DNA from: a virus
Strand: one strand, 5' to 3'
Length of the DNA: 13,219 bases
Virus record (IMG/VR): IMGVR_UViG_3300045988_160937
Coordinates: 1 to 13,219 of that record
Each line of letters starts with the position of its first letter. The stretch's first letter is position 1. Both the position numbers and the translations under genes were made by a program. Below the pieces are notes generated by a model. The model did not search any database, was not told the DNA's origin, and was given only the letters and a program-made list of their open reading frames with translations. Shown here one piece after another: positions 1 through 13,219 of this stretch.

Positions 1-96
1 CTAAAGTAATCCCCCCCCTCCCCCCGAATTTGGCGAATTAAATGTAGAGGGGTGTAGTTATGTATAGAAGTATTTATGTATTTAGGTATTTAGGGG
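1..96. repeat. Left inverted terminal repeat (96 bp, perfect reverse-complement of 13124-13219); replication origin of a protein-primed linear genome
   Basis: I reverse-complemented the right end by hand: it is identical to 1-96 and diverges at position 97 (left ggtt, right ttga). The terminus CTAAAGTAATCCCCCCCCTCCCCCC resembles the phi29 termini AAAGTAAGCCCCCACCC. It contains C8-T-C6 homopolymer tracts. Confidence 0.9.
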
Positions 97-147
97 GGTT
101 ATGGTTATATAATAACTAAATTATTTAATTTATTTTTATTAAAACTA

Positions 148-176
148 TTGACAAACCAAAATATTTATGGTATAAT
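148..176 (+). promoter_or_regulatory. Early promoter P1: consensus sigma70 with extended -10
   Basis: -35 TTGACA at 148-153, 17-nt spacer, TGg TATAAT at 168-176. Both hexamers are perfect matches. Confidence 0.75.
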
Positions 177-236
177 ATTAATGTAAATAGTTGATATATA
201 ATAACTAAATTATTTAATTTATTTTTATCAAAACTA

Positions 237-265
237 TTGACAAACTAAAATATTTATGGTATAAT
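237..265 (+). promoter_or_regulatory. Early promoter P2, a duplicate of P1: consensus sigma70 with extended -10
   Basis: -35 TTGACA at 237-242, 17-nt spacer, TGg TATAAT at 257-265. The predicted TSS near 272 lies upstream of the SD AAGAGG (283-288) and the ATG at 297. Confidence 0.75.
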
Positions 266-296
266 ATTAATGTAAATAATGAAAGAGGTAATTAAA

Positions 297-602
297 ATGA
301 AAAAACAAATTAAGATATTAACGCAAATTAGAAACCCGATAACTTTAACACTTGAATTGGTTGAAGTAGTAGTTGTAGAGTATGACAAAGATACTTATTA
401 TTATTCACCGTTGTTTAAAGGTAATAAAAATAAGATTGGATTACCAAATACTTTTGAGTTGATTGATAAATTAACAGGCATATGTGTAGTGTATTCAACT
501 AATAAAAGCATATTATTTAGTAACTATGAAGTTAATTATGAATACTATCAATTTACTAAAAAACTAAATACTATAATGATTTATGTAGAAAGTATGATTT
601 AA
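297..602 (+). CDS. Early protein of unknown function, paralog A (first gene after the terminal promoters)
   Basis: ORF track 279-602. I prefer the internal ATG at 297, which has an AAGAGG SD 8 nt upstream. The ATG at 279 sits about 7 nt from the predicted TSS with no SD. It shares the motif EYDxxxYYYSPxFKGNxN...IDKLTGxxVV with the next ORF. Confidence 0.6.
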   Translation: MKKQIKILTQIRNPITLTLELVEVVVVEYDKDTYYYSPLFKGNKNKIGLPNTFELIDKLTGICVVYSTNKSILFSNYEVNYEYYQFTKKLNTIMIYVESMI

Positions 603-652
603 AAGTTAGAGAATATAAATTTGAAAATGTTTATTAAAGAGAGGTAAAGAAA

Positions 653-973
653 ATGAAAAAGATTAAATTTCTAGTGCAATGTAAACAAATGAATGGAGAA
701 ATAGGATTAGAAGAAGTATATGTTACTGAATATGATGATTATTGTTATTACTATTCTCCTAAATTTAAAGGTAATGAAAATTTATTTGAGTGCTATCAAA
801 TGATTGATAAATTAACTGGTATGGTAGTTGTATTTGCTAATAATAAAGATTTATTAATAGATAGATATAAAAGGGCACTAGATAAGTATTTTAGAATAAT
901 AAAAGGTAAAATTTATAATGAAAAAATTAATGAATATCTAGCAAAAATAAAGGAGGTGATAAATAATGATTAA
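653..973 (+). CDS. Early protein of unknown function, paralog B (tandem duplicate of the previous gene)
   Basis: SD GAGAGGT at 639-645 and ATG at 653. Protein segment TEYDDYCYYYSPKFKGNENLFECYQMIDKLTGMVVVFANNKDLL aligns with EYDKDTYYYSPLFKGNKNKIGLPNTFELIDKLTGICVVYSTNKSIL in ORF 297-602. Confidence 0.65.
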   Translation: MKKIKFLVQCKQMNGEIGLEEVYVTEYDDYCYYYSPKFKGNENLFECYQMIDKLTGMVVVFANNKDLLIDRYKRALDKYFRIIKGKIYNEKINEYLAKIKEVINND

Positions 974-1175
974 TGAAGAATGTTTAGTAATGCATAATGA
1001 AGAAACAAAAGATATAGTAGTATTTACACATGCATACAATGAAGACGGTGATGAAGTATATACATATGCAAATAAAATAGTATTAATGGCATTATCATAT
1101 GATAATTATCAAGATATGTGGAATTATTATGATAGTTTAAATTATAAAGTTTTAATGCATACACAAAAGGCTTAA
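966..1175 (+). CDS. Small acidic early protein, unknown function
   Basis: Strong SD AAGGAGGTG at 952-960 and ATG at 966, which overlaps the stop of the previous gene (ATAATGA). 69 aa, rich in D/E/Y/N. Confidence 0.55.
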   Translation: MINEECLVMHNEETKDIVVFTHAYNEDGDEVYTYANKIVLMALSYDNYQDMWNYYDSLNYKVLMHTQKA

Positions 1176-1181
1176 GCCTTT
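1166..1181 (+). promoter_or_regulatory. Perfect 16-bp palindrome AAAGGCTTAAGCCTTT overlapping the stop codon; weak hairpin/attenuator or protein-binding site
   Basis: Self-complementary. Possible stem AAAGGC/GCCTTT with loop TTAA, followed by cttaatct, which is not a clean U-tract. A second small palindrome, GCTAGC, lies at 1212-1217. Confidence 0.3.
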
Positions 1182-1248
1182 CTTAATCTAGCCATTTAAA
1201 TATGAAGGTCGCTAGCCCTTTAAAATAGAGAGCGAGAAAGGAAAAAAT

Positions 1249-1854
1249 ATGAAATTTTTTGAAATTGATGAAGAATATTTAAAGAAAGGAGGTTTAATTT
1301 CACGAGATAAAAAAAGCGGTTTGGCTTTTGGAATAGTTAATGGTAGATTGGTTGCTTTTAAAAATGGCGATAAAGTAGAGCCTGAAGAAATTTTTAAAGG
1401 TTATGCAAGGGATTTGCTAGCAAGTGATTGGGAATATGTAACTGATAAAGGTAATATATGGAAACCTAACGATGGTGATTCATATTATTATATTTGTTCA
1501 ACAGGTGCGATTTCACACGATACTTTTGCTGAATGTTGGAGTCAAGATAAATGGCGTAGGAATTTGTGTAACGCTTTTAAAACTGAAGAAGAATCTAAAA
1601 AAATGATTGAAAAAATAAAAATCATTAATAGATTAAGGGAATTATCAAATATTAATTTTGGCAATGATATTGGTCAATTAAAATATTCAATAGGTTATGA
1701 TATTGATACTAAAAAAGTATGTTCAAGTATGAATAGATATACTAGATTAATACCTTTTGATATATATTTTGAAACCGCTATGGATTGTCAAAATGCAATC
1801 GATGAAATTGGCGAAGAAAATCTAAAAAAATACTATTTTGACGTGGTTGAATAA
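1249..1854 (+). CDS. Early protein, unknown function (201 aa)
   Basis: SD GAAAGGA upstream and ATG at 1249. Long uninterrupted ORF in a dense, co-directional operon. I recognise no motif. Confidence 0.55.
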   Translation: MKFFEIDEEYLKKGGLISRDKKSGLAFGIVNGRLVAFKNGDKVEPEEIFKGYARDLLASDWEYVTDKGNIWKPNDGDSYYYICSTGAISHDTFAECWSQDKWRRNLCNAFKTEEESKKMIEKIKIINRLRELSNINFGNDIGQLKYSIGYDIDTKKVCSSMNRYTRLIPFDIYFETAMDCQNAIDEIGEENLKKYYFDVVE

Positions 1855-2228
1855 TGAAAAAGAAAACGTATTTATTTGTTATTGATAATAAAGTACTAAT
1901 TGATAATCTTAAACCATGTAGAAAAGTTAGTAAAGACTTATTTTTAGTAAAAATTGATGAAGACAATAGGTGTATAATTGATTACTATACCCGTTTTCAA
2001 TTAAAATTAAAGGAACCATTAAGAGTATTGTATAATGATTATTTAGTAGTTGATAAATTTGGTACAATAGTAACTGTTATATTAACTTGCTTTAAACATA
2101 AGAACGATTTAATAAAAAAGAGTATTAAAAAATATAATACATTTAAAAAAGATATTGATTATAAAAAATATAAATTAAAGCAATTAATGAAGTATGTTGT
2201 GTATAAAATAAAAATCGGTGAATATTAA
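1854..2228 (+). CDS. Early protein, unknown function (124 aa, basic, K-rich)
   Basis: Its start overlaps the previous stop (TAATG at 1852-1856), suggesting translational coupling. I recognise no motif. Confidence 0.5.
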   Translation: MKKKTYLFVIDNKVLIDNLKPCRKVSKDLFLVKIDEDNRCIIDYYTRFQLKLKEPLRVLYNDYLVVDKFGTIVTVILTCFKHKNDLIKKSIKKYNTFKKDIDYKKYKLKQLMKYVVYKIKIGEY

Positions 2229-2245
2229 GAAAGGAGGTATAAACA

Positions 2246-2515
2246 ATGCTATATGTATATAAAAATGATATTTACGAAGTAGAGTTACATTTTCATTCAC
2301 GACAAGAAATGATTAAATCAATACGTCGTGGTAAAGTCAAATGCTTAACGCCAAATGAAAATATTACTGAAGAAGAAAGAAATTACATTAAACCAATACT
2401 GCATAAAATTGAATTAGATAGTTTAACAAATATTAGAGTTAAAGAGTTAGATTATTTAATGAAAGTATACGGCTATTATCGTTGTCGTGATTTTGACATT
2501 GTTTACAAGGCTTAA
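2246..2515 (+). CDS. Early protein, unknown function (89 aa)
   Basis: Strong SD AAGGAGGT at 2230-2237 and ATG at 2246. Confidence 0.55.
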   Translation: MLYVYKNDIYEVELHFHSRQEMIKSIRRGKVKCLTPNENITEEERNYIKPILHKIELDSLTNIRVKELDYLMKVYGYYRCRDFDIVYKA

Positions 2516-2585
2516 CAATTAAAACAAAAACCTTAAAATCAAAAATAGGTGCTACCTACCAAAAGTGAGAGAAAGAGAAAAACAC

Positions 2586-2948
2586 ATGAAAATTTTTATT
2601 TATGAAAAAAAGTATATTTCAAAGAAAGACGGAAATAAATTTCCTGTTTTAAAAGGTATTTTAAGAAAGGAAGATACTAAAACTAATACCGACCACTATT
2701 TTAATATCGGATTTTACAAGGAAGATAAAGATTTATTTAATAAAGAAATGTTAAAGAAAGATTTATCATTTCCTATTACAATTGATTTAAAACCAAATGA
2801 TTATTTCATTTCTAAAAAATATGATAAAGAAAAGAAAATTGAAATTTTAACATTAGTTATTAAAAATTGGACTGACATGCAACAAGAAGAATGGAAGACA
2901 AATACTTTAGAAGATTTTGCTAAACAAAATGATAAATTACCTTTTTAA
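2586..2948 (+). CDS. Early protein immediately upstream of the terminal-protein gene (120 aa); SSB/DNA-binding replication accessory by position only
   Basis: ORF track starts at GTG 2565. I prefer ATG 2586, which follows the purine-rich gagagaaagagaaaaa. In phi29 the genes preceding the TP gene encode SSB p5 and DBP p6. I see no sequence similarity to either. Confidence 0.45.
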   Translation: MKIFIYEKKYISKKDGNKFPVLKGILRKEDTKTNTDHYFNIGFYKEDKDLFNKEMLKKDLSFPITIDLKPNDYFISKKYDKEKKIEILTLVIKNWTDMQQEEWKTNTLEDFAKQNDKLPF

Positions 2949-2961
2949 GAGGTAATTCTGT

Positions 2962-3600
2962 ATGGCAAAAAATCTTACATTAAAAAAGATACTTAGCCTT
3001 GATTACACTGATTTGTCAAAAATGACAAAAAATGACTTAATACAAATGTCAAAAGTACTTTCAAGAAATATGAATAGAAGGATGAAAACTTTACAAACTA
3101 AAGGTTATAGTTCTCAATCAAGAGCCTTTAATTTATATCAACAATCTTTAAAAAGTGGTGTTACATACACAACTTCAAAAGATATAGAAAAAATGACACG
3201 TAATCAAATGTTGAAACAAATCACAACCGCATATAACATTATGAAACTTAAAAGTTCAACGTTTGAGGGTGTTAAAAAAATTCTTACAGGTGTTGATAAA
3301 CGTCTAGCCGATTTAGATTCAAGCAATCAAATTACATGGTCATATAATGACGCTAGCAATGCAATGAAAGATAAATTTTGGGAAATATATAATAGAATAA
3401 CCGAGTTGCGTAATGATTATGATAGTTATCAACTTCAAAAAGATATTGCTATAATGTTTTCAAATAGCGATAAAAGACATAGTGCTGAATGGTATACAAT
3501 TAGATTAAATGAAAAATATGATGAAATTTATAAAAGACAACAAGAAGAAACCCTCAAGGATTTAGAGCGGTTCAATGGAAATTCTAATTTTTTCATCTAA
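2962..3600 (+). CDS. Putative terminal protein (primer protein for protein-primed replication), 212 aa
   Basis: SD AAGAGG at 2947-2952 and ATG at 2962. It lies directly upstream of the protein-primed polB and overlaps it by 26 nt, the conserved TP-then-pol arrangement in phi29 and Cp-1-like phages. The call rests on position, the ITR-bearing genome and its size; I did not align it residue by residue. Confidence 0.5.
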   Translation: MAKNLTLKKILSLDYTDLSKMTKNDLIQMSKVLSRNMNRRMKTLQTKGYSSQSRAFNLYQQSLKSGVTYTTSKDIEKMTRNQMLKQITTAYNIMKLKSSTFEGVKKILTGVDKRLADLDSSNQITWSYNDASNAMKDKFWEIYNRITELRNDYDSYQLQKDIAIMFSNSDKRHSAEWYTIRLNEKYDEIYKRQQEETLKDLERFNGNSNFFI

Positions 3601-5764
3601 TAAATCAAAAATTGAGGAGGTTTTACAAAGTATAAAATCTAAAGCAAAAATAAGTAAGAAAGGTAAAAAATACTACTACAATTTTGCTTGCGGTTTTGAC
3701 ACTGAAACTTCCTCTTTTTATCAAAATTTAAAAACGGGTAAAACTTCTTTATCTTTAGATAATGTAAATAAAAATGAAATTAAAGACTATGTAAAAAGAG
3801 GTATTGTATATGAGTGGACTTTTGGTATATATTCAAATGGTGATATTTTAATTGTAATTGGTAGAACACTTGAAGAATATCAAGAATTATATAATATGAT
3901 AACTAATATTTTTGATACAAACGCTATTAATTTATTAATTTACGTACACAACCTTGCTTTTGATTTTCAATTTATAAGAGGTTATTTTACCTTTGATAAA
4001 GTGTTTGCGATTGAAGAAAGAAAAGTATTAAAGGCTATTACAAATGATGGCGTTGAATATCGTTGTAGTTATCAATTAAGTGGTTATTCTTTAAGTGTTG
4101 TTGCCAAAAATCTAACAAAGCATAAAATTGAAAAGTTAGTAGGCGATTTAGATTATTCTAAAATACGACATTCAACAACACCACTTACACAAGAAGAGTT
4201 AGATTATTGTATTCACGACGTTATAATTATATTATACTATATTGATGAAACAATTACAAATGACGGAGATATTACTAAAATACCCCTTACCAAAACGGGT
4301 TATGTACGTAATTATTGTCGCAAGGCTTGTTATAAGGTAGTAGGTGATAAAAAGGCAAGCAAAGATAAAACACGCAAATACTATGCTTTAATGCAAAAAT
4401 TAACCTTAACTACTGATGAATACGATTTACTAAAAACTTCTTTTATGGGAGGTTTTACACACGCAAATGCAATGAATTGTGGTAAAGTGTATGAAAATGT
4501 TAGAAGTTTTGATGAGACTTCCGCATATCCGACTGTGATGATTGCCGAGAAATTTCCGATGAGTAAAGGTATACAAATAAATCATATTACTAAACAAGAA
4601 TTTGAAGAAAAAGTACGCAATTATTGTTGCGTATTCGACGTTGAATTAAATGACGTTGAAAGTTTGATTTACTATGAAAATTATATCTCATCATCAAAAT
4701 GTAGAAGTCTTGAAAATCAACTTGAAAATAATGGACGCATTGTTTCCGCAAAACGTCTAATAATATCAATAACTAATATTGATTGGGAGATTATCAAACG
4801 CACATATTCTTTTTCATCCTTTAGAATAGGTAGATTTTATTATTATCAAAAAGGGTATTTACCTACTGATTTTGTAAAATCAATTCTAAAACTTTATAGT
4901 GATAAAACAACCCTAAAGGACGTTGAAGGAAAAGAAACTGAATACTTATCATCTAAAGGGATGATTAATTCGGCATATGGTTGTTGCGTTACTGATATTG
5001 TTCGTGATGAAATAATTTATGATATGGAAGGGTGGCATAAAGAAAAAAACACAACTGAAAATATTGATAAAATTATAACAAAATATAATAAATCAAGAAA
5101 TAGATTTCTTTTCTATGCATGGGGCGTTTTTGTAACCGCATATGCACGTGCAAATCTTTGGAGTGGTATTTTTGAATTAAAAGAAGATTATATTTATAGT
5201 GATACCGATTCGCTAAAATTTATTAATTATGATAAACATAAACATTTTTTTGAATTGTATAACAATAGACTAATTTATAAACTTCAAAAAGCCCTAGACT
5301 ATCATAAAATACCTTACGAGGCTTACATACCAAAAACAATTAAAGGCGTTGAAAAAATATTAGGTGTATGGGATGATGAAGGCATATATGATAAATTTAA
5401 GACTTTAGGTGCAAAACGATATATGTATTTTAAAAATGATAAACTAACTTTAACCATAAGTGGTGTAAATAAAAAAACCGCAACACCGTGGTTGCTAAAA
5501 CATTTTGCAAATGATGATATTAAACAAGTTGATAAAGTTTTTAATGCTTTTGAAAACGAGTTAGAATTTTCTAAAGACGCAACAGGTAAACAAACACACA
5601 CATATTTAGATTTCGAATATGAAGGTTATGTAAAAGATTATACAGGTAAATTAGGTTATTATCATGAGTTTGCAAGCATACATTTAGAAAGTACTACATA
5701 CTCACTTTCAATCAGTCAACAATTTTTAGACTATTTAAAAGGTATTAAGTATATAAAAATTTAA
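3575..5764 (+). CDS. Protein-primed family-B DNA polymerase (phi29 gp2-like)
   Basis: Motifs line up with phi29 DNA polymerase. Exo I is FACGFDTETSS (phi29 YSCDFETTT). Exo II is YVHNLAFDFQFI (YFHNLKFDGAFI). Exo III is YCIHDV (YIKND). Pre-motif A is FMGGFTHAN (YRGGFTWLN). Motif A is FDETSAYP (FDVNSLYP). Motif B is KGMINSAYGCCV (KLMLNSLYGKF). Motif C is YIYSDTDSLKF (IIYCDTDSIHL). KxY is LGAKRYMYF. The start at 3575 has no clear SD; an in-frame GAGGAGG at 3614-3620 makes the exact start uncertain. Confidence 0.93.
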   Translation: MEILIFSSNKSKIEEVLQSIKSKAKISKKGKKYYYNFACGFDTETSSFYQNLKTGKTSLSLDNVNKNEIKDYVKRGIVYEWTFGIYSNGDILIVIGRTLEEYQELYNMITNIFDTNAINLLIYVHNLAFDFQFIRGYFTFDKVFAIEERKVLKAITNDGVEYRCSYQLSGYSLSVVAKNLTKHKIEKLVGDLDYSKIRHSTTPLTQEELDYCIHDVIIILYYIDETITNDGDITKIPLTKTGYVRNYCRKACYKVVGDKKASKDKTRKYYALMQKLTLTTDEYDLLKTSFMGGFTHANAMNCGKVYENVRSFDETSAYPTVMIAEKFPMSKGIQINHITKQEFEEKVRNYCCVFDVELNDVESLIYYENYISSSKCRSLENQLENNGRIVSAKRLIISITNIDWEIIKRTYSFSSFRIGRFYYYQKGYLPTDFVKSILKLYSDKTTLKDVEGKETEYLSSKGMINSAYGCCVTDIVRDEIIYDMEGWHKEKNTTENIDKIITKYNKSRNRFLFYAWGVFVTAYARANLWSGIFELKEDYIYSDTDSLKFINYDKHKHFFELYNNRLIYKLQKALDYHKIPYEAYIPKTIKGVEKILGVWDDEGIYDKFKTLGAKRYMYFKNDKLTLTISGVNKKTATPWLLKHFANDDIKQVDKVFNAFENELEFSKDATGKQTHTYLDFEYEGYVKDYTGKLGYYHEFASIHLESTTYSLSISQQFLDYLKGIKYIKI

Positions 5765-5803
5765 AGTGTAAGTATGATTAACTTACACTTTATTTTATTT
5801 TAC
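5762..5803. terminator. Bidirectional rho-independent terminator between the convergent transcription units
   Basis: A 12-bp stem, 5762-5773 ttaagtgtaagt pairing with 5781-5792 acttacacttat, encloses the loop atgatta. T-tracts lie on both sides: tattttattttac downstream on +, and tttttatatac on the - strand side. It sits between the polymerase stop (5764) and the ATPase stop (5795). Confidence 0.7.
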
Positions 5804-6922
5804 AGGAAATCCGCAAGCCATTAAATAGTTGCGTACTACTTCACCAATCATATTATCTTGATAGAAAACTTTATCAAGTTTAAAAAACCATACAATTTTT
5901 TCTTCAAGTTTTGTAACAGGCACATTTATTCGACGTCTATATTTTGGTGAAGGGTTAAACTCAAGAGAATAAATAACTGTTTCCTGTTCTTTTCTTATTG
6001 GTGTTGTTTTTTTATGTATATATGTATATACGCATTTATGTTCGTCATCTCTAATAATTTCACATTGCAAGGTTTCACCTTCAAACTTAATATAGTAAAT
6101 AAATAAGATATCTTCAAATTTATATTTGTAAGGTAAATGAGGGTATATTCCAATTTCCCATGTATTGCCTTCACCTGTAATCATATTTAATTTTGGATTA
6201 TCAAAAGCAAAATAAACATTACTTTTCTTATTTTTTCCAATACCGTCGGCAAATTCAACTGCAACTTTTAATTTACTATTTCCATAACTGTAAATATCAA
6301 TATCGCCCGGTTTCATGCGTTTGGCTCTAGTTAAACCCATTTCACCAAAATAAGGGTTATAAGGGTTTATTGAGTTACCGCACATATATATTTCAACATT
6401 TTCACGTAATCTAATAATAGTTGAAAGTGTGTTTGTAAATAATACAAATTCATCTTCTAAATAGCCGTTTCTTGATATAAATTCGTCAAATAAAATTGTT
6501 GTAACATTTGGAAAACTTGCCGATTTATCGTGTTCCATTGACGCTAAAGAAAACGCATAACAAAAAGGTTTTTTGTCTAACACGTCACTATTTAAAGTTT
6601 CATCAAAATTTGCTAAAAACCACATTGAAGATTTGTAAACAATTTTTGAAAATTTACCTTTAGTGATATCTTTTACTCTACCTTCATTAACTAAATTTTC
6701 AAAGGTTCGTGCTCCACGTTTGCCTCTAAAATCTTCAAGCATACGACGCAATATTGCTCCTTCATCTTTATAACCGCTTTCTACATATCTTTGAAGTATT
6801 AACTCTAATACACTAAATGATTTACCATTTGAACGTTCACCAAAAATAACAAAATATTTACAACCTCCTACTTCTTTGCTTTTTTCTCTAATTCTAGTTA
6901 AACGATAGTATTTAGGTTTCAT
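5795..6922 (-). CDS. DNA encapsidation (packaging) ATPase, phi29 gp16-like
   Basis: Walker A FVIFGERSNGKSFS matches phi29 gp16 FVIGARGIGKSYA. Walker B TTILFDEFIS matches STIVFDEFIRE. NSINPYNPYF matches NAVSVVNPYF. It is the last gene of the late unit, as in phi29. Its start is coupled to the upstream tail gene stop (TAATG). Confidence 0.88.
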   Translation of the reverse strand: MKPKYYRLTRIREKSKEVGGCKYFVIFGERSNGKSFSVLELILQRYVESGYKDEGAILRRMLEDFRGKRGARTFENLVNEGRVKDITKGKFSKIVYKSSMWFLANFDETLNSDVLDKKPFCYAFSLASMEHDKSASFPNVTTILFDEFISRNGYLEDEFVLFTNTLSTIIRLRENVEIYMCGNSINPYNPYFGEMGLTRAKRMKPGDIDIYSYGNSKLKVAVEFADGIGKNKKSNVYFAFDNPKLNMITGEGNTWEIGIYPHLPYKYKFEDILFIYYIKFEGETLQCEIIRDDEHKCVYTYIHKKTTPIRKEQETVIYSLEFNPSPKYRRRINVPVTKLEEKIVWFFKLDKVFYQDNMIGEVVRNYLMACGFPVK

Positions 6923-9357
6923 TATAAAATAACTCCATTTATTAGCATTTCATATATTTTATTTTTTTCTTCTTGTGTTGCCGTTGACAAATTTTCAATG
7001 TGAATTTCTTTAACTTGCGTGTAACCTTTCATATTTTTAAGTAATCTAGTTTTATTAAGTGGTAATCCTAATAATTTTTTATAGTGTTCTTGTGAATTAG
7101 AAACGACAGGACGAGTTACTAACATGTATATTTCAAAAGGCATAGCCAAATCATTTACATTGCCACTTGTTTCACCTTTAATAGCATTAGAGGAAGTTAA
7201 GGCGTTGATATCACCCATAATCATACCACTAGTTGCACGTGCTCCACCTAATATACCAATAATAGGATTACCTGTTATTGCAAAAGCACCTATTGACACT
7301 GCATAATCAATTACACCTTTTATATTAGTAATTAATAAATCTTGATTAGTTTTGTACGTTCCGTCACTACCAATTGGTATTTTAACACCGCATTTACCTT
7401 GTTGTGTTGTTATAAGAACGTCGTGTGAATTATCAGTTAATGAATCTCCACGTTTTACTAGTAATAATGCTTGTCCTGTATCAAAATCAATAGATATATC
7501 AATTTTAATATAATAACCCATAAAAATTTGAGGTGAAATTTGAAAATAACCAAAAAATGGTATATAAATTTTATATTGTGATTGATAATCTAAATAATTA
7601 TTAAAATAAGGTTCAATCTTAAAATTAGCAATATTAATACTATTATGTGGATTTGATAAATAATAATTATTAAGGGTAAAAGTAGATTTTCCAATTGTAA
7701 TTTTATCAAAATACGTGCTAGTTCTAAAGAATTTATTAACTTCAAAAGGGTATAACATAATAGATGATATATATTCATTAGGATTTGCAAAAAAAGTACC
7801 TATCACTGATTGGTCTATTTTACTACATTGATTACATAATCTAGTTATAGTGTTAATATTTCCTGAAAATTTTTTATTGAATGAAGTTTGTTCCCATGAT
7901 TTTAAATTATCTCCACCTTGTTCGCCTGTTGTAGACATTGTAGAAATTATAAAAGGTAAAGTCACTGATTGCTTAAAAGGGTTGTTTTGTGGTGTTAAAT
8001 TTTCAACCAAAGCAAGTTGTGAAGTATTATCAACTACTAATTCATTATCAGGCAAATTAGCGTCAAATTCAAATTCGTTTCTTGCAATTAAGCCTTCTAA
8101 ATTTCCAATCTCATTTTTAAAACTCATTAATTCATCACACGATAAATAAAGCACATAGAAATTATTAGGTGTTAATACAATATTGGTAATATAATAATAT
8201 CTATTTAGATTATTGATATAACAATAATTAAAAAATGGAAGTTCGTTATAAACAATCTTAATAATAGGATTTAATATTGAAGTACTATCTTTAAAAATTA
8301 TATTACACTCATAAATTTTAACTAAATCATTTTCTTTATTAACTTTACTATCTTCCGCATTATTTTGATAAAAAGTTGCTTTAATCGAGGGTGCCCTCCA
8401 ATATGCATATAAAGTTAAATCGTGTGTTACAGGTGTGTTAAAATCATAAGCACTATACATAATATTTGATTTGCTCCAACCAATAAATGTATAACCTTCT
8501 TTGGTAGGTATATCTAAGGGTTTACCAACCAATTGATTATATTGTCTTGTTTGTGAAGGTTCTTGAGGTGTACCTCCTTGCATATCAAAATTAATGGTAT
8601 AACTTTGAATATTATAATTTGCATATAATGTTATATCATCTTCGATAATTTGTTCTCCAAATATATAAGGGTCGCCACCTTCTTCAATGCTCCAATATAA
8701 AAACTTATAACCTTCTTTAGTACAATTATAATCATAGTCGCTAGTTACTTTACTTCCATAATCAACAAAAACAAAGTCATTAGGGTAAATTTCTTTAACA
8801 ATTCCACCTTTTGTGATATAATTAATTTTAACTTGTTGTTTCTTAAAAATAGCCGTTACTTGTATAGGTTCAAAAATATTACTACCATATAAAATACTCA
8901 CATCCTCAAAGGAAGGTAGTTGCCAATATTCAAAAGTATAACCAACTTTTGTGCTTGTTAGAAAATCATAATACGATATTATTTGTCCTATTGGTTTGAA
9001 AAATGGATTTGTCAATGTTTCATCTAGTGTACCACCATTTAAGGCATAATCAATACCAACAAATTCAACACTTGAATAAAAATAATTAAAGAAAGTGTCG
9101 TCTATTTCTTGATTATACCAATCAAAATTTAAGTCTTGATAATCTACTTCTTCCCAACCACCGTCTTGCAAATAAGCCGTTATATAACTTCCATCGCTTT
9201 TTCTTTTATATTGCAACTCTTGTTTTAATAGTTGCATACCGGTATATTGAACGTGTGCACTATCTTCAAAATTAACACTTATTTCAATTTTAGTTACTTG
9301 TTCGTCAACTAAAAGTTTAAAAGTATCTTTAAGTCTATATCTTCCATTTATAAACAT
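6922..9357 (-). CDS. Tail protein / receptor-binding tail knob (811 aa) with three N-terminal Listeria-Bacteroides (Flg_new-type) repeats
   Basis: ORF track starts at 9405, but that start overlaps a terminator hairpin. The ATG at 9357 (MFINGRYRL) has SD AAGGAGG 8 nt upstream. Three ~75-aa repeats of the Flg_new pattern end in NGG...GYTFEYWQ...VTAIFKK, KGG...KEGYKFLYWS...ITLYANY, and INFDMQGG...PTKEGYTFIGWS...THDLTLYAYW. The C-terminal ~450 aa is Gly-rich near the end (GNPIIGILGGARATSG). It is the largest virion gene, located between the capsid and ATPase genes. Confidence 0.7.
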   Translation of the reverse strand: MFINGRYRLKDTFKLLVDEQVTKIEISVNFEDSAHVQYTGMQLLKQELQYKRKSDGSYITAYLQDGGWEEVDYQDLNFDWYNQEIDDTFFNYFYSSVEFVGIDYALNGGTLDETLTNPFFKPIGQIISYYDFLTSTKVGYTFEYWQLPSFEDVSILYGSNIFEPIQVTAIFKKQQVKINYITKGGIVKEIYPNDFVFVDYGSKVTSDYDYNCTKEGYKFLYWSIEEGGDPYIFGEQIIEDDITLYANYNIQSYTINFDMQGGTPQEPSQTRQYNQLVGKPLDIPTKEGYTFIGWSKSNIMYSAYDFNTPVTHDLTLYAYWRAPSIKATFYQNNAEDSKVNKENDLVKIYECNIIFKDSTSILNPIIKIVYNELPFFNYCYINNLNRYYYITNIVLTPNNFYVLYLSCDELMSFKNEIGNLEGLIARNEFEFDANLPDNELVVDNTSQLALVENLTPQNNPFKQSVTLPFIISTMSTTGEQGGDNLKSWEQTSFNKKFSGNINTITRLCNQCSKIDQSVIGTFFANPNEYISSIMLYPFEVNKFFRTSTYFDKITIGKSTFTLNNYYLSNPHNSINIANFKIEPYFNNYLDYQSQYKIYIPFFGYFQISPQIFMGYYIKIDISIDFDTGQALLLVKRGDSLTDNSHDVLITTQQGKCGVKIPIGSDGTYKTNQDLLITNIKGVIDYAVSIGAFAITGNPIIGILGGARATSGMIMGDINALTSSNAIKGETSGNVNDLAMPFEIYMLVTRPVVSNSQEHYKKLLGLPLNKTRLLKNMKGYTQVKEIHIENLSTATQEEKNKIYEMLINGVIL
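8395..9072 (-). repeat. Three tandem protein-level Listeria-Bacteroides (Flg_new-like) repeat modules within the tail gene
   Basis: The repeat segments are read by eye from the translated sequence; coordinates are approximate. The third copy matches the family consensus best (vtedltLYAkW ending). Confidence 0.6.
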
Positions 9358-9375
9358 TTTAAATTCCTCCTTTTT

Positions 9376-9407
9376 ATAAAAATAAAGAGTGGTGTATTCC
9401 ACCACTC
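9376..9407 (-). terminator. Intrinsic terminator/attenuator downstream of the major capsid gene (partial read-through into the tail gene)
   Basis: On the - strand: gagtggtg-gaata-caccactc, an 8-bp stem with a 5-nt loop, followed by tttatttttat, then SD AAGGAGG and the tail gene ATG at 9357. Confidence 0.6.
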
Positions 9408-9411
9408 AAAA

Positions 9412-10572
9412 TTAAGCAATAAAGAATACTACAAAATTTTCCGCTAAATCATTGAAATATCTTGAAGTAAATTTGTGCCAGTAGTTCATAAATTGTGCGT
9501 TAGGCGTATTCATAGTTGTTACTTCTCTACGTGGTTGTAAAATACCTAAAGCCTCATCATCAAACATAACACCTAAAATACCACTAGCGGTAACATTATT
9601 AGATTTTGCAGTTATAACATTAATTTTTGAAACACTGTCAAACGCAAAATCGGTTCCACTACCTTGCCAATATGAAATAGTTTCATGCTTTGGTAAAGAA
9701 ACAAGTTCGTTATGATATGTATCACTTTGTAAGTATACTTGTGTTGCACTTTCAAAATCATTAAGTAAAACAACATGTAAATAATCTTTTGGTGTATGTT
9801 TAGTTGTTCCTTCAATATTGTATAATTTAGAAACGGCTTTCATACGATTCATTGTTAAAGTCATAACTTCAACACAATATCTAATAAACTCTTTATCTTG
9901 TAATGCCGTTGCTACTGTTAATGTTGTGTCAGGGTGTAAAGCCTTATATCTTGCAAATAAATTGATTGCACGTGTGTTTCCTACACCTGTAAAAGTTGTG
10001 CCACTATTGTAAGCGTCAAACAAAGTTTCACCAATAAAGTTATTAACACTACGTTTTGCTAATTCTTCAATTTTAATTTCCATTGATAGTTGAACGTTAC
10101 CCTCAATCATTGAAATAAACTTAACATAATCTTCAGGACTCTTTAAACTTTCTTGTACTTGAAGTGAAGTAATTGATACTTGAATTTGGAAAGTACTTGC
10201 TTGATTGTAGAATTTTTCATAAACTTTTGGTTTTTTGTAAACGTGAGGGTCATAACTTGCACCGTCAACTAATTCCCAACTTTCATTTTCAATTGCCTCA
10301 GGGATTTCACCACGTACTTTTGCAAGGATTGAACCATATTCCCAATAATCTTTTAAGATAGTTTGTAGTTCGCCACTGTATGGACGGTTAACAAAGATTG
10401 TACGTCCAATTCTATTTGCTAATTCATTACAATAGTTGTCTACACCTAATTTCTCTTGTAATTTGCCTCCAATATCTACTACATTGGAAAGGTCTTCCTG
10501 AAGTACTTCGGTTTCACCTAATACCTCTTTTGTCATATCATTGACTAATTCATAAACTTGTGTGATTTTCAT
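9412..10572 (-). CDS. Major capsid (head) protein, phi29 gp8-like (386 aa; no C-terminal BIG2-type extension)
   Basis: The N-terminal segment ELANRIGRTIFVNRPYSG resembles phi29 gp8 SLVDRIGLVVIRQVSLNNP. SD AAGGAGG precedes the ATG at 10572. It is followed by a terminator hairpin, and its size and position are typical of a picovirus MCP. Confidence 0.7.
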   Translation of the reverse strand: MKITQVYELVNDMTKEVLGETEVLQEDLSNVVDIGGKLQEKLGVDNYCNELANRIGRTIFVNRPYSGELQTILKDYWEYGSILAKVRGEIPEAIENESWELVDGASYDPHVYKKPKVYEKFYNQASTFQIQVSITSLQVQESLKSPEDYVKFISMIEGNVQLSMEIKIEELAKRSVNNFIGETLFDAYNSGTTFTGVGNTRAINLFARYKALHPDTTLTVATALQDKEFIRYCVEVMTLTMNRMKAVSKLYNIEGTTKHTPKDYLHVVLLNDFESATQVYLQSDTYHNELVSLPKHETISYWQGSGTDFAFDSVSKINVITAKSNNVTASGILGVMFDDEALGILQPRREVTTMNTPNAQFMNYWHKFTSRYFNDLAENFVVFFIA

Positions 10573-10592
10573 ATTTTAAATTCCTCCTTTTT

Positions 10593-11165
10593 TTAATAAC
10601 CTACATAATACAACGTAAATGTTTGACCACTTGTCACATTATCACATTCAATAACCCAATCATTACTAGAATTGGCTGTAATATAAAAATTATAAGTTTT
10701 AGTATCAATTGTTATTTGCCCTACTAAAAATTTACCAATACCCGTAACAATATTAATAGGTAATGCAATGCTAGTGCCACCTACGATTGTTGATATAAAC
10801 AAATTTCTAGTATATGGAAAATCTATATATTTTATAATACTTTTTTTATCACTATTAAACCTACCATTATAACTATTGTAAGTACTTTTAAAAGTTACAT
10901 TTACTTCACCGCTTTCAATATAAGCAACTACACTAAAACCATATACATAAAATGTGAAATATGTTGATTTTTTAACAACATTAGTTATAAAGTCGTTATA
11001 TTCTACACCATTTATCACGATACCACTGACAATTGTATGCTTATAGTAATTATGCTCTAATAGTTCTATTAAATTATATGATAAGTCTAATTTTTGAGTT
11101 TGTACGGGTGCCGTAATATTAATATTTTCTAAATCTATAATTAAATAACCGCCTTTTTTTGACAT
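10593..11165 (-). CDS. Virion-region protein, unknown (190 aa, beta-rich Y/T/V/N composition); possible head fibre/decoration or tail component
   Basis: SD AAGGAGG precedes the ATG at 11165. It lies between the connector-region genes and the capsid gene. I recognise no catalytic motif. Confidence 0.4.
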   Translation of the reverse strand: MSKKGGYLIIDLENINITAPVQTQKLDLSYNLIELLEHNYYKHTIVSGIVINGVEYNDFITNVVKKSTYFTFYVYGFSVVAYIESGEVNVTFKSTYNSYNGRFNSDKKSIIKYIDFPYTRNLFISTIVGGTSIALPINIVTGIGKFLVGQITIDTKTYNFYITANSSNDWVIECDNVTSGQTFTLYYVGY

Positions 11166-11178
11166 TATTAAAACCTCC

Positions 11179-11862
11179 TTATAGCCAAATTTTTAAAGTT
11201 AGATAATCATCAAATGACTTAAGAATAATATCATAAAAATTATTCATCGTTCTTAAGTCTAATTCTTTTAAGATTAAATCTTGAGAAGGCATATCGCTAC
11301 CACTAGTCTCAATCTTTTCATCTCCTGTTTCTTTTGTGGTTCGTGTTTCTTCGTTGTCATTCATTTCACCACTATTGATTGATTGATTCAAGTTTGTAAA
11401 GTCCTCACTATTATAACCGCTAACTTGATTAGTATTAGTAACTTTACTTTTAATATTTCTTGTTTCATCGTGTTGCAAATTAGGTGTACGTGTTTTAGTT
11501 TCTTTCTTACTATCTAAAATATTATATTTAGTTGTTAAACTTTCAAATATATTAGTCCAATTTGCAATATTTTTGATATAAATCATATATGAAAGACTTT
11601 TAATTTTCTCTTCGTCTAATTGGTTGTTTTCATTGAGAAAAATTTCAACAATTTTAGCGATGATTTTATAACCACATTTTTGATAAATTAATGATACGTC
11701 AAGCATTTCATTAGTTTCATCACTTTGTAAAAATAAGGGTATATCAACTTGCCTTTCAGTTAAAGTTTGCTTTAAATAATATATAAATCCTCTAAAATCT
11801 TGCTTAAAACTATTCGGCATTGTTTCTATTAGTGTCGGTCGGTTCAGTACTTCGCAACTCAT
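11179..11862 (-). CDS. Virion-region protein with a long acidic S/T/N/E-rich low-complexity C-terminal half (227 aa); scaffolding protein or lower-collar candidate
   Basis: ORF track starts at 11886. I prefer the ATG at 11862 (MSCEVLNRPT), which has SD AAGGAGG (complement of 11873-11879) 8 nt upstream. It overlaps the connector gene 3' end by 53 nt in another frame. Confidence 0.45.
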   Translation of the reverse strand: MSCEVLNRPTLIETMPNSFKQDFRGFIYYLKQTLTERQVDIPLFLQSDETNEMLDVSLIYQKCGYKIIAKIVEIFLNENNQLDEEKIKSLSYMIYIKNIANWTNIFESLTTKYNILDSKKETKTRTPNLQHDETRNIKSKVTNTNQVSGYNSEDFTNLNQSINSGEMNDNEETRTTKETGDEKIETSGSDMPSQDLILKELDLRTMNNFYDIILKSFDDYLTLKIWL

Positions 11863-12835
11863 CTTTATCAACCTCCTTATTTTCAACTTCTTGTATCATT
11901 TCATCTTTTTTAAGTTTCCACGATAAGCCTAAATCAACTTGAATATTTGTGCCAAACATTTCATTGACTTTGTCAAAACTTTCTTGACGACTCAACAACA
12001 TATCATCTACAAACGGTAACAAAGCGTCATCATTTAATTGACTTTCACTACTATTAAGACTTTCTCTCTTCATATTATAATTGGCATTTAAGCCCAATTC
12101 ATTAAACCAACTTGCTTTATAATATTGAAGTAATTCAATTAATTGTGTGATTGATTGATTGTTGTTTTGTCCGTTGAAAAGACTTTTGATGACTTCTTCA
12201 TTCATAATTGCTTGTGATGAAAAAACACTTAACAAATCACCTTCTTCGAGTTTTTTTATCATCACTTCGTAACTTTCTTTTGTGTTCTTATCACTTGTTG
12301 CAACAATTGTCATTAATCTTGTTAACACACTTGATATTTTTAAGGACAATTCAGTTTCAGTTAAAGCCGTTGCATATCTTCTACATAATGGTGTTAAGCC
12401 AATTAAAGTACTATCATTTTTGATAATAACACAATTCTTACCAACTTCAAGTGTAAAACTTCCATATACAGGATTTGCAATAATAAATTGTTTTGGTACA
12501 TAGTTGCCGTCAAGTTCACCACCCCATGCACCAAAGCATATATACAAATCGCCTTCACCTTTCAAGTCTTCAGTTAAGGGTTGTAGCATTCCATTTGATA
12601 AAGTTTTAGCCTTGAAACAACAAAGATAACCAATTGATTGTAACCACAATTCAAGTAATCGTTTATCAATAGTTTTAGGTAAATTTTCATACTTAAACAT
12701 TCTAGAAGTTTTAGAAAACATATATTGCATATTATTTCTAACACATACTTGTTTATTTTTAAAATCATAAACATTAGAATTAATCCAACTATACCCCATA
12801 CCACCTATAAAATCATTCTCTTTTTTCCTACCCAT
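11810..12835 (-). CDS. Head-tail connector / portal protein, phi29 gp10-like (upper collar)
   Basis: MGRKKEN...YENLPKTIDKRLLELWLQSIGYLCCFK aligns with phi29 gp10 MARKRSN...[27 protein letters not shown]. C-terminal ESFDKVNEMFGTNIQVDLG aligns with EEACEKINELYGLNVKVKF. SD AAGGTGG is present, and the start overlaps the upstream stop (TAATG). Confidence 0.85.
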   Translation of the reverse strand: MGRKKENDFIGGMGYSWINSNVYDFKNKQVCVRNNMQYMFSKTSRMFKYENLPKTIDKRLLELWLQSIGYLCCFKAKTLSNGMLQPLTEDLKGEGDLYICFGAWGGELDGNYVPKQFIIANPVYGSFTLEVGKNCVIIKNDSTLIGLTPLCRRYATALTETELSLKISSVLTRLMTIVATSDKNTKESYEVMIKKLEEGDLLSVFSSQAIMNEEVIKSLFNGQNNNQSITQLIELLQYYKASWFNELGLNANYNMKRESLNSSESQLNDDALLPFVDDMLLSRQESFDKVNEMFGTNIQVDLGLSWKLKKDEMIQEVENKEVDKDELRSTEPTDTNRNNAE

Positions 12836-13074
12836 TAGTTGCCACCTTCTTTTTTAAGATTTTCTAATTCATCAATAGCCTTGTCAACTTCTTGTTTAAC
12901 TTTTTCAAACTTTTTATTTTTAATTGCTTTATAAACATTATAACATAGTTTAAATAAAATCCATAAAATTTGTATTGAAATAATTATAACACCTAGTATA
13001 CTTTCTATTTGTGAAATACCTAAAGCCATACCAATAGCAATTAATGTTGTATCAATAATGTTGTCATACTTCAT
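12835..13074 (-). CDS. Small membrane protein (79 aa, two predicted TM helices plus a charged coiled-coil-like C-terminus); class-II-holin-like, or alternatively a phi29 p16.7-like membrane anchor
   Basis: Hydrophobic stretches TTLIAIGMALGISQI and ILGVIIISIQILWILFKL are followed by KNKKFEKVKQEVDKAIDELENLKKEGGN. It is the first gene after the right-end promoter, with SD AGGAGG and ATG at 13074. Confidence 0.45.
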   Translation of the reverse strand: MKYDNIIDTTLIAIGMALGISQIESILGVIIISIQILWILFKLCYNVYKAIKNKKFEKVKQEVDKAIDELENLKKEGGN

Positions 13075-13094
13075 AACTTATACCTCCTATAAAT

Positions 13095-13123
13095 ATTATA
13101 TCATAAATAAATAACTACGTCAA
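13095..13123 (-). promoter_or_regulatory. Right-end promoter driving the leftward structural/late operon: consensus sigma70 with extended -10
   Basis: The - strand reads TTGACG (complement of 13118-13123), a 17-nt spacer, then TGa TATAAT (-10 at complement of 13095-13100). It is immediately followed by ataggaggtataagtt ATG (13074) and abuts the ITR. Confidence 0.7.
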
Positions 13124-13219
13124 CCCCTAAATACCTAAATACATAAATACTTCTATACATAACTACACCCCTCTACATTTAATTCGCCAAATTCGGGGGG
13201 AGGGGGGGGATTACTTTAG
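13124..13219. repeat. Right inverted terminal repeat (96 bp)
   Basis: It is the exact reverse complement of 1-96. Confidence 0.9.

Follow-up and report, generated by a model that had tools for sequence, protein, structure and literature searches.

The stretch of DNA analyzed here, IMG/VR virus record IMGVR_UViG_3300045988_160937 (hereafter, the window: all 13,219 nt of it), carries the genes of a small podovirus resembling phage phi29. It is bounded by 96-nt inverted terminal repeats (ITRs; 1–96 and 13124–13219) whose arms are 100% complementary, and its G+C content is 27.3% overall (0.23–0.32 per kb); on both the perfect repeats and the extreme AT richness, our analysis agrees with the initial annotation of this DNA. 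Sixteen open reading frames (ORFs), with starts refined by ribosome-binding sites, make up the coding sequence. Nine plus-strand genes (297–5764), among them those for replication, converge on seven minus-strand genes (13074–5795) that include the structural and packaging genes. No tRNA genes were found in the window.

The last plus-strand gene (3575–5764) encodes a protein-primed family-B DNA polymerase (polB) of 729 aa (PF03175; phrog_1907, E 1.8e-65), with three exonuclease motifs (ExoI FDTET41, ExoII NLAFD126, ExoIII YCIHD211) and the polymerase motifs A (DETSAYP313), B (KGMINSAYG461), C (YSDTDS541), and KxY (GAKRY612). A PDB search with the single polB sequence returned no match. Family profiles were built from about 90 collected related loci (numbered with the prefix L below) and compared with phages phi29, GA-1, and B103. 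This way, the polB family aligned to the gp2 proteins over 443 columns (hhalign 99.8%, E 2e-29), with ExoII, ExoIII, motifs A, B, and C, and KxY in register with the phi29-type polymerases, ExoI upstream of the aligned block, and both TPR1/TPR2 insertion regions aligned. These features identify the replication machinery as phi29-type.

Overlapping the polB start is ORF8 (2962–3600, plus strand; 212 aa), which by position and conservation is our candidate for the terminal protein. Its family adjoins polB in 81 loci and includes astrithr gp02 and Phanie gp2, from two cultured phages; the basic N-terminal half is conserved and a T98-S99-T100 motif is nearly invariant. An AlphaFold2 model, computed from a shallow alignment, is all-helical, albeit of low confidence (pLDDT 55). 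HMM searches recover a counterpart of p3 in Astrithr-like phages, according to a review (PMC11476376). Other comparisons gave this assignment no support: ORF8 has no profile similarity to phi29 gp3 (hhalign 0.5–1%), so that the candidate and the phi29 terminal protein are unrelated at the profile level; none of 45 ORF8 family members had a terminal-protein match in Pfam or PHROGs; ORF8 itself had no match in NCBIfam or in a PDB profile search; and Foldseek found no fold match for the pLDDT 55 model. ORF8 is thus retained as a candidate, by synteny and conservation only.

For phi29, a terminal AAA is a requirement of sliding-back initiation. In the window, a terminal protein (most likely ORF8) would prime each end opposite 3'-TTT and then slide back, the candidate template end being 3'-TTTCATTA. 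Directly upstream of ORF8, ORF7 (2586–2948, plus strand; 120 aa) is a candidate single-stranded DNA-binding protein (SSB) and would act as such: its C-terminal end, NDKLPF, resembles the tip of bacterial SSBs. Proteins at the same position in other lineages (L030, 10288–10719; L046, L047, L048, L087) also end in D/E-x-LPF (DLPF, DDLPF), and jackhmmer searches found the LPF-ending proteins of different lineages to be otherwise unrelated in sequence.

The virion genes occupy the minus strand. The upper collar or connector (11810–12835; 341 aa) belongs to the gp10 family (PF05352, E 1.5e-13; phrog_2038, E 1.4e-32), and the major capsid protein (MCP; 9412–10572; 386 aa) matches PF25622 Phi29_MCP over its full length (E 1e-42). 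Directly downstream of the connector gene, orf227 (11179–11862), whose family is present in 90 loci, is a candidate lower collar analogous to gp11. Compared with gp11, its profile reaches only 55% probability (E 1.2e-4), so the assignment is a weak one.

The largest structural gene (6922–9357, minus strand) has a Shine–Dalgarno-preceded ATG and encodes an 811-aa tail knob protein, a fusion of three parts. Residues 1–320 hold three Flg_new/InlB B-repeats, the InlB B-repeat also being the sole match of the protein in a PDB sequence search. Residues ~325–450 are the N-terminal part of the knob, which matches separate small genes of astrithr, Phanie, L015, and L085, and within which residues 360–427 resemble phi29 gp9 (80% probability, E 1.4e-5). 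Residues ~454–811 are the C-terminal part, matching the C-terminal portions of the large knob proteins of relatives. The homology of the knob to Astrithr-like knob genes is clear.

Between the capsid and lower-collar genes, orf190 (10593–11165, minus strand) encodes a conserved ~95-aa N-terminal domain (KGGYxIIDLK), which is a stand-alone small gene upstream of the MCP gene in relatives, followed by a hypervariable ~90-aa C-terminal domain; four of five genomes otherwise near-identical to the window have unrelated sequence in its place. The protein is probably surface-exposed and is a candidate receptor-binding or decoration protein, and the Flg_new adhesin module together with orf190 would probably determine host recognition.

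The minus-strand operon ends with a gp16-type DNA packaging ATPase (5795–6922; 375 aa; PF05894, E 2.6e-12; phrog_2150) bearing Walker A (GERSNGKS28) and Walker B (TTILFDE141) motifs. Only its N-terminal domain aligns to gp16 (phi29/GA-1/B103 profile: hhalign 99.7%, E 6.5e-26); residues 194–375 (~180) have no detectable counterpart, and this C-terminal region may be relevant to docking of the motor without a packaging RNA (pRNA). A review finds pRNA to be confined to Bacillus phages (PMC11476376). We found no Rfam match at E<=1 in the window and no structured intergenic region of at least 90 nt. Apart from the ITR and promoter regions at the two ends, intergenic gaps measure at most ~73 nt, and a terminator (z = −5.4; see below) is the only significantly structured intergenic element. 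The absence of pRNA is negative evidence only; as we picture it, the gp16-type ATPase would package unit-length DNA, apparently without pRNA.

The full phi29-type core claimed in the initial annotation can be upheld for polB, connector, capsid, and ATPase by HMM and, by a weaker match, for the tail knob; the terminal protein is placed by position only. The same annotation had listed p4, the head fiber, gp12, and lysin as lacking. None of these was matched in our searches, results that are negatives and no proof of absence. Proteins of the window gave no jackhmmer or hhalign match to p4 or p6, nor to the gp7 scaffold or the gp12 appendage, with templates for phi29 accessory genes that are two to three sequences deep and hence of limited sensitivity.

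Transcription appears to start at the two ends, as the initial annotation had proposed on noting how this differs from phi29, and both the promoters and a comparison with the phi29 annotation support this. On the left, a tandem 89-nt duplication (106–278, plus strand; 84 nt aligned, 98% identical) provides one promoter per copy, at 148–176 and 237–265. Both are perfect TG-extended sigma-70 promoters (TTGACA-17-TGnTATAAT) and drive the replication/early operon; a relative, L009, has a single copy of the repeat. On the right, the structural operon is preceded by a near-perfect promoter of this type, TTGACG-17-TGATATAAT (13095–13123, minus strand), and the left- and right-end promoter regions are 77% alike. 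The operons meet at a bidirectional intrinsic terminator with a 12-bp stem (5762–5792). Directly after the capsid gene, a terminator-like hairpin with a T-run (9387–9407, minus strand) may dampen transcription running on into the genes for the tail and the ATPase. Ribosome-binding sites in the window are strong and of the AGGAGG type, and the capsid and tail genes share near-identical (93%) 27-nt translation-initiation regions (9356–9382, 10573–10599).

In phi29, the late promoter has no −35 element and depends on p4, and the early operon on the left is read in the direction of the end. Given that host-consensus promoters serve both operons of the window, we infer that there is no p4/A3 early–late switch of the phi29 style. 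Both operons would be co-expressed from the start of infection, their levels tuned by the attenuation hairpin and by the strength of the ribosome-binding sites. Inside the left ITR, ahead of the promoters, lie three tandem GTATTTAK 8-mers (70–93; GTATTTAT GTATTTAG GTATTTAG), mirrored in the right ITR; a protein that recognizes the origin or the promoter may bind to them.

With respect to lysis, the first gene of the structural operon, ORF79 (12835–13074, minus strand), encodes a small membrane protein in which a hydrophobic stretch of ~37 aa is combined with a charged C-terminus. In L085 and L088, this slot is taken by a gp14-like holin beside a glucosaminidase-like lysin, and ORF79 probably takes part in lysis as a holin-like protein. 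Pfam, PHROGs, and NCBIfam searches of all ORFs revealed no lysin, and neither did jackhmmer searches started from the lysins of three relatives and from phi29 gp13/gp15, nor hhalign comparison to gp13/gp15. As no lysin was found, the lysis step of our best explanation is incomplete. An independent relative with 27.8% G+C and the same layout, L030, has the same gap and only an ORF79-like membrane protein, which suggests a lineage trait rather than an accident of annotation.

This gap admits a more radical interpretation, which we rate as rather unlikely: a phi29-type tailed phage without any peptidoglycan hydrolase, whose wall-less or near-wall-less Bacilli host is lysed by the holin-like protein alone, or else a phage with a novel lysis or entry factor among its seven unassigned small proteins. 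The narrower proposal that the host has no peptidoglycan wall or a very thin one (Mollicutes-like gut Bacilli using the standard code), which would explain the lack of both endolysin and tail lysin, also seems doubtful to us. It would account for the failure of five kinds of search and for the matching gap in L030, and it agrees with the 27% G+C and with Flg_new homologs from metagenome-assembled genomes (MAGs) named 'Bacilli bacterium' and 'Acholeplasmataceae'. Yet the lysins of relatives are diverse and easily missed, any of the seven unassigned ORFs could be a novel lysin, host autolysins serve some phages, and the best long-contig Flg_new homolog comes from an Erysipelotrichaceae MAG, a walled lineage.

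The host is probably a low-G+C member of the gut Bacillota, a weakly supported assignment to which the AGGAGG ribosome-binding sites, the extended −10 promoters, the 27% G+C, and the InlB-type repeats point. The long Erysipelotrichaceae contig just mentioned has 26.7% G+C, its Flg_new homolog being 31% identical. Two observations pull the other way: Flg_new homologs are only 31–43% identical and come from mixed gut taxa, and the core proteins of the window are nearer to those of Astrithrvirus, which infects Gram-negative bacteria (~45%), than to those of the Bacillota-infecting Amedibacillus phages (~30–36%).

Kinship with Acinetobacter phage Phanie raises the possibility that the window stems from a helper-dependent podophage, infectious only when docked on the tail of another phage, with the Flg_new module or orf190 binding the helper. 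Phanie, whose polB, MCP, and ATPase are ~45–47% identical (aa) to those of the window, depends on a helper myophage; wider helper dependence among fiber-less Astrithr-like phages has been suggested (PMC11476376); and no tail fiber, spike, or lysin is recognizable in the window. The knob, however, differs from that of Phanie in forming one chain with three fused InlB-type B-repeats, typical of bacterial surface adhesins; the hypervariable surface-protein candidate orf190 is consistent with direct recognition of the host; and nothing points to a helper occurring alongside. We regard helper dependence as quite improbable.

Whether the ITRs mark true ends could be judged from independent contigs. 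Three IMG/VR contigs (L006, L007, and L008) extend to the right end and a fourth contig, L009, to the left; each enters unique sequence specific to its end, L009 running on from the terminus into left-specific sequence. Three of them (L006, L007, and L009) terminate exactly at AAAGTAAT, that is, at base 3 or 13217 of the window, and the terminus of L008 lies four bases further in (7 / 13213). The extra CT and AG at the window ends correspond to the final bases of the Illumina adapter (...GATCT). Adapter remnants (GATCT, CGATCT, GCTCTTCCGATC) also occur at contig ends of other relatives (L063, L080, L090, L068), in three of which (L063, L080, and L090) they directly precede AAAG termini, implying that adapters had been ligated onto genuine DNA ends. 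Bases 1–2 and 13218–13219 are thus probably adapter residue and not genomic. Given their adapter origin, the true genome would be ~13,215 bp long with 94-nt ITRs, starting with AAAGTAAT (the left end from base 3 reads AAAGTAATCCCCCCCCTCCCCCC). The termini are the real physical ends of a linear genome. Public contigs of this phage group are often 2–12 nt overlong at their ends owing to such remnants.

Metagenomic assemblers are able to produce terminal inverted duplications, and the outermost 2 nt of the window are probably non-genomic; a chimeric or fold-back contig, an artifact against which the initial annotation had already cautioned, is nevertheless scarcely credible. The end is shared by contigs from other assemblies, as described above; ITRs of 30–640 nt recur throughout the family, as protein priming would lead one to expect; the genes make up a complete, non-redundant set with 94% coding; and strand composition changes exactly at the terminator. 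A linear protein-primed plasmid or phage-plasmid in place of a strictly lytic virus is equally hard to credit: phage-plasmids are listed among phi29-like entries (PMC11476376), but a full virion and packaging module fills more than half of this genome, no partition, toxin–antitoxin, repressor, or integrase genes were detected on its ORFs by Pfam, PHROGs, or NCBIfam, and the sole match among species-representative genomes is a 13.5-kb stand-alone contig in a MAG.

We consider it very likely that the window is the complete linear double-stranded DNA (dsDNA) genome of a virulent human-gut podovirus, phi29-like and protein-primed, which belongs to a very large clade of 10–14 kb genomes, mostly uncultured, with the Astrithrvirus group as its cultured representatives. 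Linear dsDNA, ITRs, and a reiterated terminal base, the marks of the phi29-like group, are all present. Completeness was a claim of the initial annotation too, and the coincident ends of independent contigs substantiate it. The size, which the same annotation had called very small, is below that of phi29 (19.3 kb), yet 13.2 kb is ordinary for this group, whose cultured relatives, identified by protein searches, have genomes of 10.4–12.3 kb (for literature context, see bioRxiv 10.1101/2025.06.18.659913).

The suggestion of an apparently undescribed lineage did not hold. Megablast found no nucleotide-level match among 50,697 GenBank phage records, but five IMG/VR genomes (3300045988_154079, _169354, _152623, _157057, and _171272) are 90–97% identical to the window over most of its length, and further near-identical copies occur in the Sequence Read Archive (Logan) assemblies SRR17241640 and SRR17241631. 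Taxon 3300045988, the source of these IMG/VR genomes, is a co-assembly of human fecal samples. By BLAST coverage times identity, the window is ~80–88% similar to the nearest catalog entries. Relative to the window, the near-identical set shows 98–99% aa identity in MCP, 96–98% in polB, and 99% in the ATPase, shares its gene set and gene order, and has the same terminus (AAAGTAATCCCCCCCC), but lacks both the ORF1/ORF2 cassette (see below) and the 89-nt promoter duplication. None of its contigs has both ITRs, and all are unannotated catalog entries rather than described phages.

Beyond this set, relatives are numerous. For the capsid protein, at least 7,985 related 90%-clusters exist, most of them on contigs of 12–14 kb; at least 447 IMG/VR contigs of 10–14 kb encode relatives; and many human-fecal 'Bacteriophage sp.' records are among the protein-level relatives. 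The only match among 185,579 species-representative genomes was the above-mentioned stand-alone contig, a 49% relative in a MAG binned as 'Eubacteriales'. A 2024 review counted more than 2,000 phi29-like entries, including genomes of 11–14 kb and split knobs (PMC11476376). Taken with the catalog genomes and with cultured Astrithrvirus relatives at ~45% aa identity, this places the window in a known kind that is well sampled, as a new lineage at the level of species or genus. Its lineage-specific features (an ATPase gene that closes the structural operon, the fused Flg_new knob, the hypervariable orf190, and the lack of a detected pRNA or lysin) are variations on a known theme.

Among named phages, Astrithrvirus and its allies (Salmonella astrithr, assan, and Astrid; Acinetobacter Phanie; Pectobacterium DU_PP_III; Enterobacter Entb_47; Vibrio K58 g2) have mini phi29-like genomes of 10.4–11.9 kb with ITRs. 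With the window, they share the terminal-protein-candidate and lower-collar families and a small ORF before the connector gene; aa identity is ~44–47% in polB, MCP, and ATPase and ~35% in the connector. They differ in their Gram-negative hosts, a G+C content of 37–40%, a shorter lower collar (about 184 aa), the presence of an endolysin, and a knob split over two genes with Ig-like inserts. Their genes are arranged collinearly (polB>ATPase>connector>MCP>knob>lysin) except for a few in reverse orientation at the right end, whereas in the window the ATPase gene ends an opposite-strand structural operon, the knob is fused, and no lysin was found. Measured against the ICTV genus level of about 70% nucleotide identity, megablast found no match and blastn only a 65% identical 0.7-kb ATPase stretch. 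Given this lack of nucleotide similarity, the window does not belong to the same genus.

The Amedibacillus phages AD70P2 and AD70P3 (labeled Guelinviridae) resemble the window in other respects: they measure 12.3 kb with 26.7% G+C, have a 55-nt ITR and a single-chain knob, and infect a gut Bacillota host (Erysipelotrichaceae-related). Their layout is almost wholly one-directional, they have no Flg_new module, and their core proteins are not close to those of the window (30% aa identity in MCP, 36% in polB, 22% in the connector, the ATPase being barely detectable).

With phi29 itself (Salasmaviridae), the window has in common the Phi29_MCP and gp10 connector families, polB, the gp16 ATPase N-terminal domain, the N-terminal part of the knob (80%), a gene upstream of polB that encodes the terminal protein (a candidate in the window), and a bidirectional terminator after the ATPase gene. 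In contrast, phi29 has a 6-nt ITR. Of the genes that characterize phi29 in the strict sense, pRNA, p4, p6, gp7, the head fiber, gp12, the gp13 tail lysin, and gp14/gp15 were not detected in the window by the searches made. The termini themselves show some likeness: the window end (3–26; AAAGTAATCCCCCCCCTCCCCCC) and the left end of phi29 (L094, 1–24; AAAGTAAGCCCCCACCCTCAC) agree at 12/13 and 16/22 positions ungapped, or at 18/21 with one gap, and with AAAG held fixed, the remaining likeness exceeds chance only marginally (p ~0.02 in shuffles). Both ends begin AAAGTAA and continue with a C-tract, a resemblance that hints at a conserved origin but does not prove it. L074 and the left end of B103 likewise have AAAG and then a C-tract, and in Phanie a C-tract lies a few bases in.

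Gene order in the clade (L001–L093) is highly plastic. Among 86 loci in which polB, ATPase, and MCP were all detected, four layouts occur: half (43) are collinear as in Astrithrvirus, 28 have the ATPase gene behind polB and opposite to the structural genes, 2 show a permuted collinear order, and the convergent arrangement of the window, with the ATPase gene in the structural operon, is found in the 7 loci of the near-identical set and in 6 other, more distant ones. The ATPase gene thus switches operon. Across the clade, the N-terminal part of the knob may have a gene to itself, form the tail of a larger protein, or be joined to the C-terminal part, and lysis genes occupy three different positions or are missing.

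The significance of these findings is modest, as nothing is overturned: size, layout, and family fall within the range of the 2024 review and of metagenomic catalogs. What the window adds is a clean genome, complete to both physical termini, from the mini phi29-like phages, a group that abounds in the human gut but has almost no cultured members. Comparison with ~90 relatives reveals a minimal gene set that is freely rearranged, with the ATPase gene moving, knobs split or fused, adhesins swapped, and lysis genes at new positions or missing. With its 16 genes, the window offers a compact model for dispensability in tailed phages, with pRNA, scaffold, late-gene activator, and lysin not recognizable, as well as a divergent pair of protein-primed polymerase and candidate terminal protein from a 27% G+C background. 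Residual interest attaches to the missing lysin, the absent pRNA, the unanchored terminal-protein family, and the plasticity of gene order in the clade.

As for codon usage, 15 of the 16 genes stop at TAA, one at TAG, and none at TGA, a zero that is not significant alone for 16 genes at 27% G+C. An alternative code with TGA as Trp (Mycoplasma-type host) was considered and rejected: the genes are intact under table 11, with none interrupted, and every Trp is encoded by TGG, which argues against a code of that type.

The remaining genes lie on the plus strand at the left end. ORF1 (297–602; 101 aa, with a Shine–Dalgarno-preceded ATG) and ORF2 (653–973; 106 aa) are paralogs with 46% identity (E 6e-19) and a common YYYSPxFKGN motif. 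Their cassette was not found in any fetched relative, and a 44-mer from ORF2 had no match among IMG/VR or JGI metagenome contigs. They are followed by ORF3 (966–1175; 69 aa, acidic), found only in the near-identical set, ORF4 (1249–1854; 201 aa), ORF5 (1854–2228; 124 aa, basic), and ORF6 (2246–2515; 89 aa), the last being 94–98% conserved in that set. Over ORF3–ORF5 (966–2228, compared with L005–L009), aa identity ranges from 41 to 95%, being mostly 41–63% (46–61% for ORF4) with two to three exceptions at 94–95%, while the rest of the genes in these genomes show at least 94% identity. ORF3–ORF5 form a fast-evolving cassette, possibly for host takeover or anti-defense.

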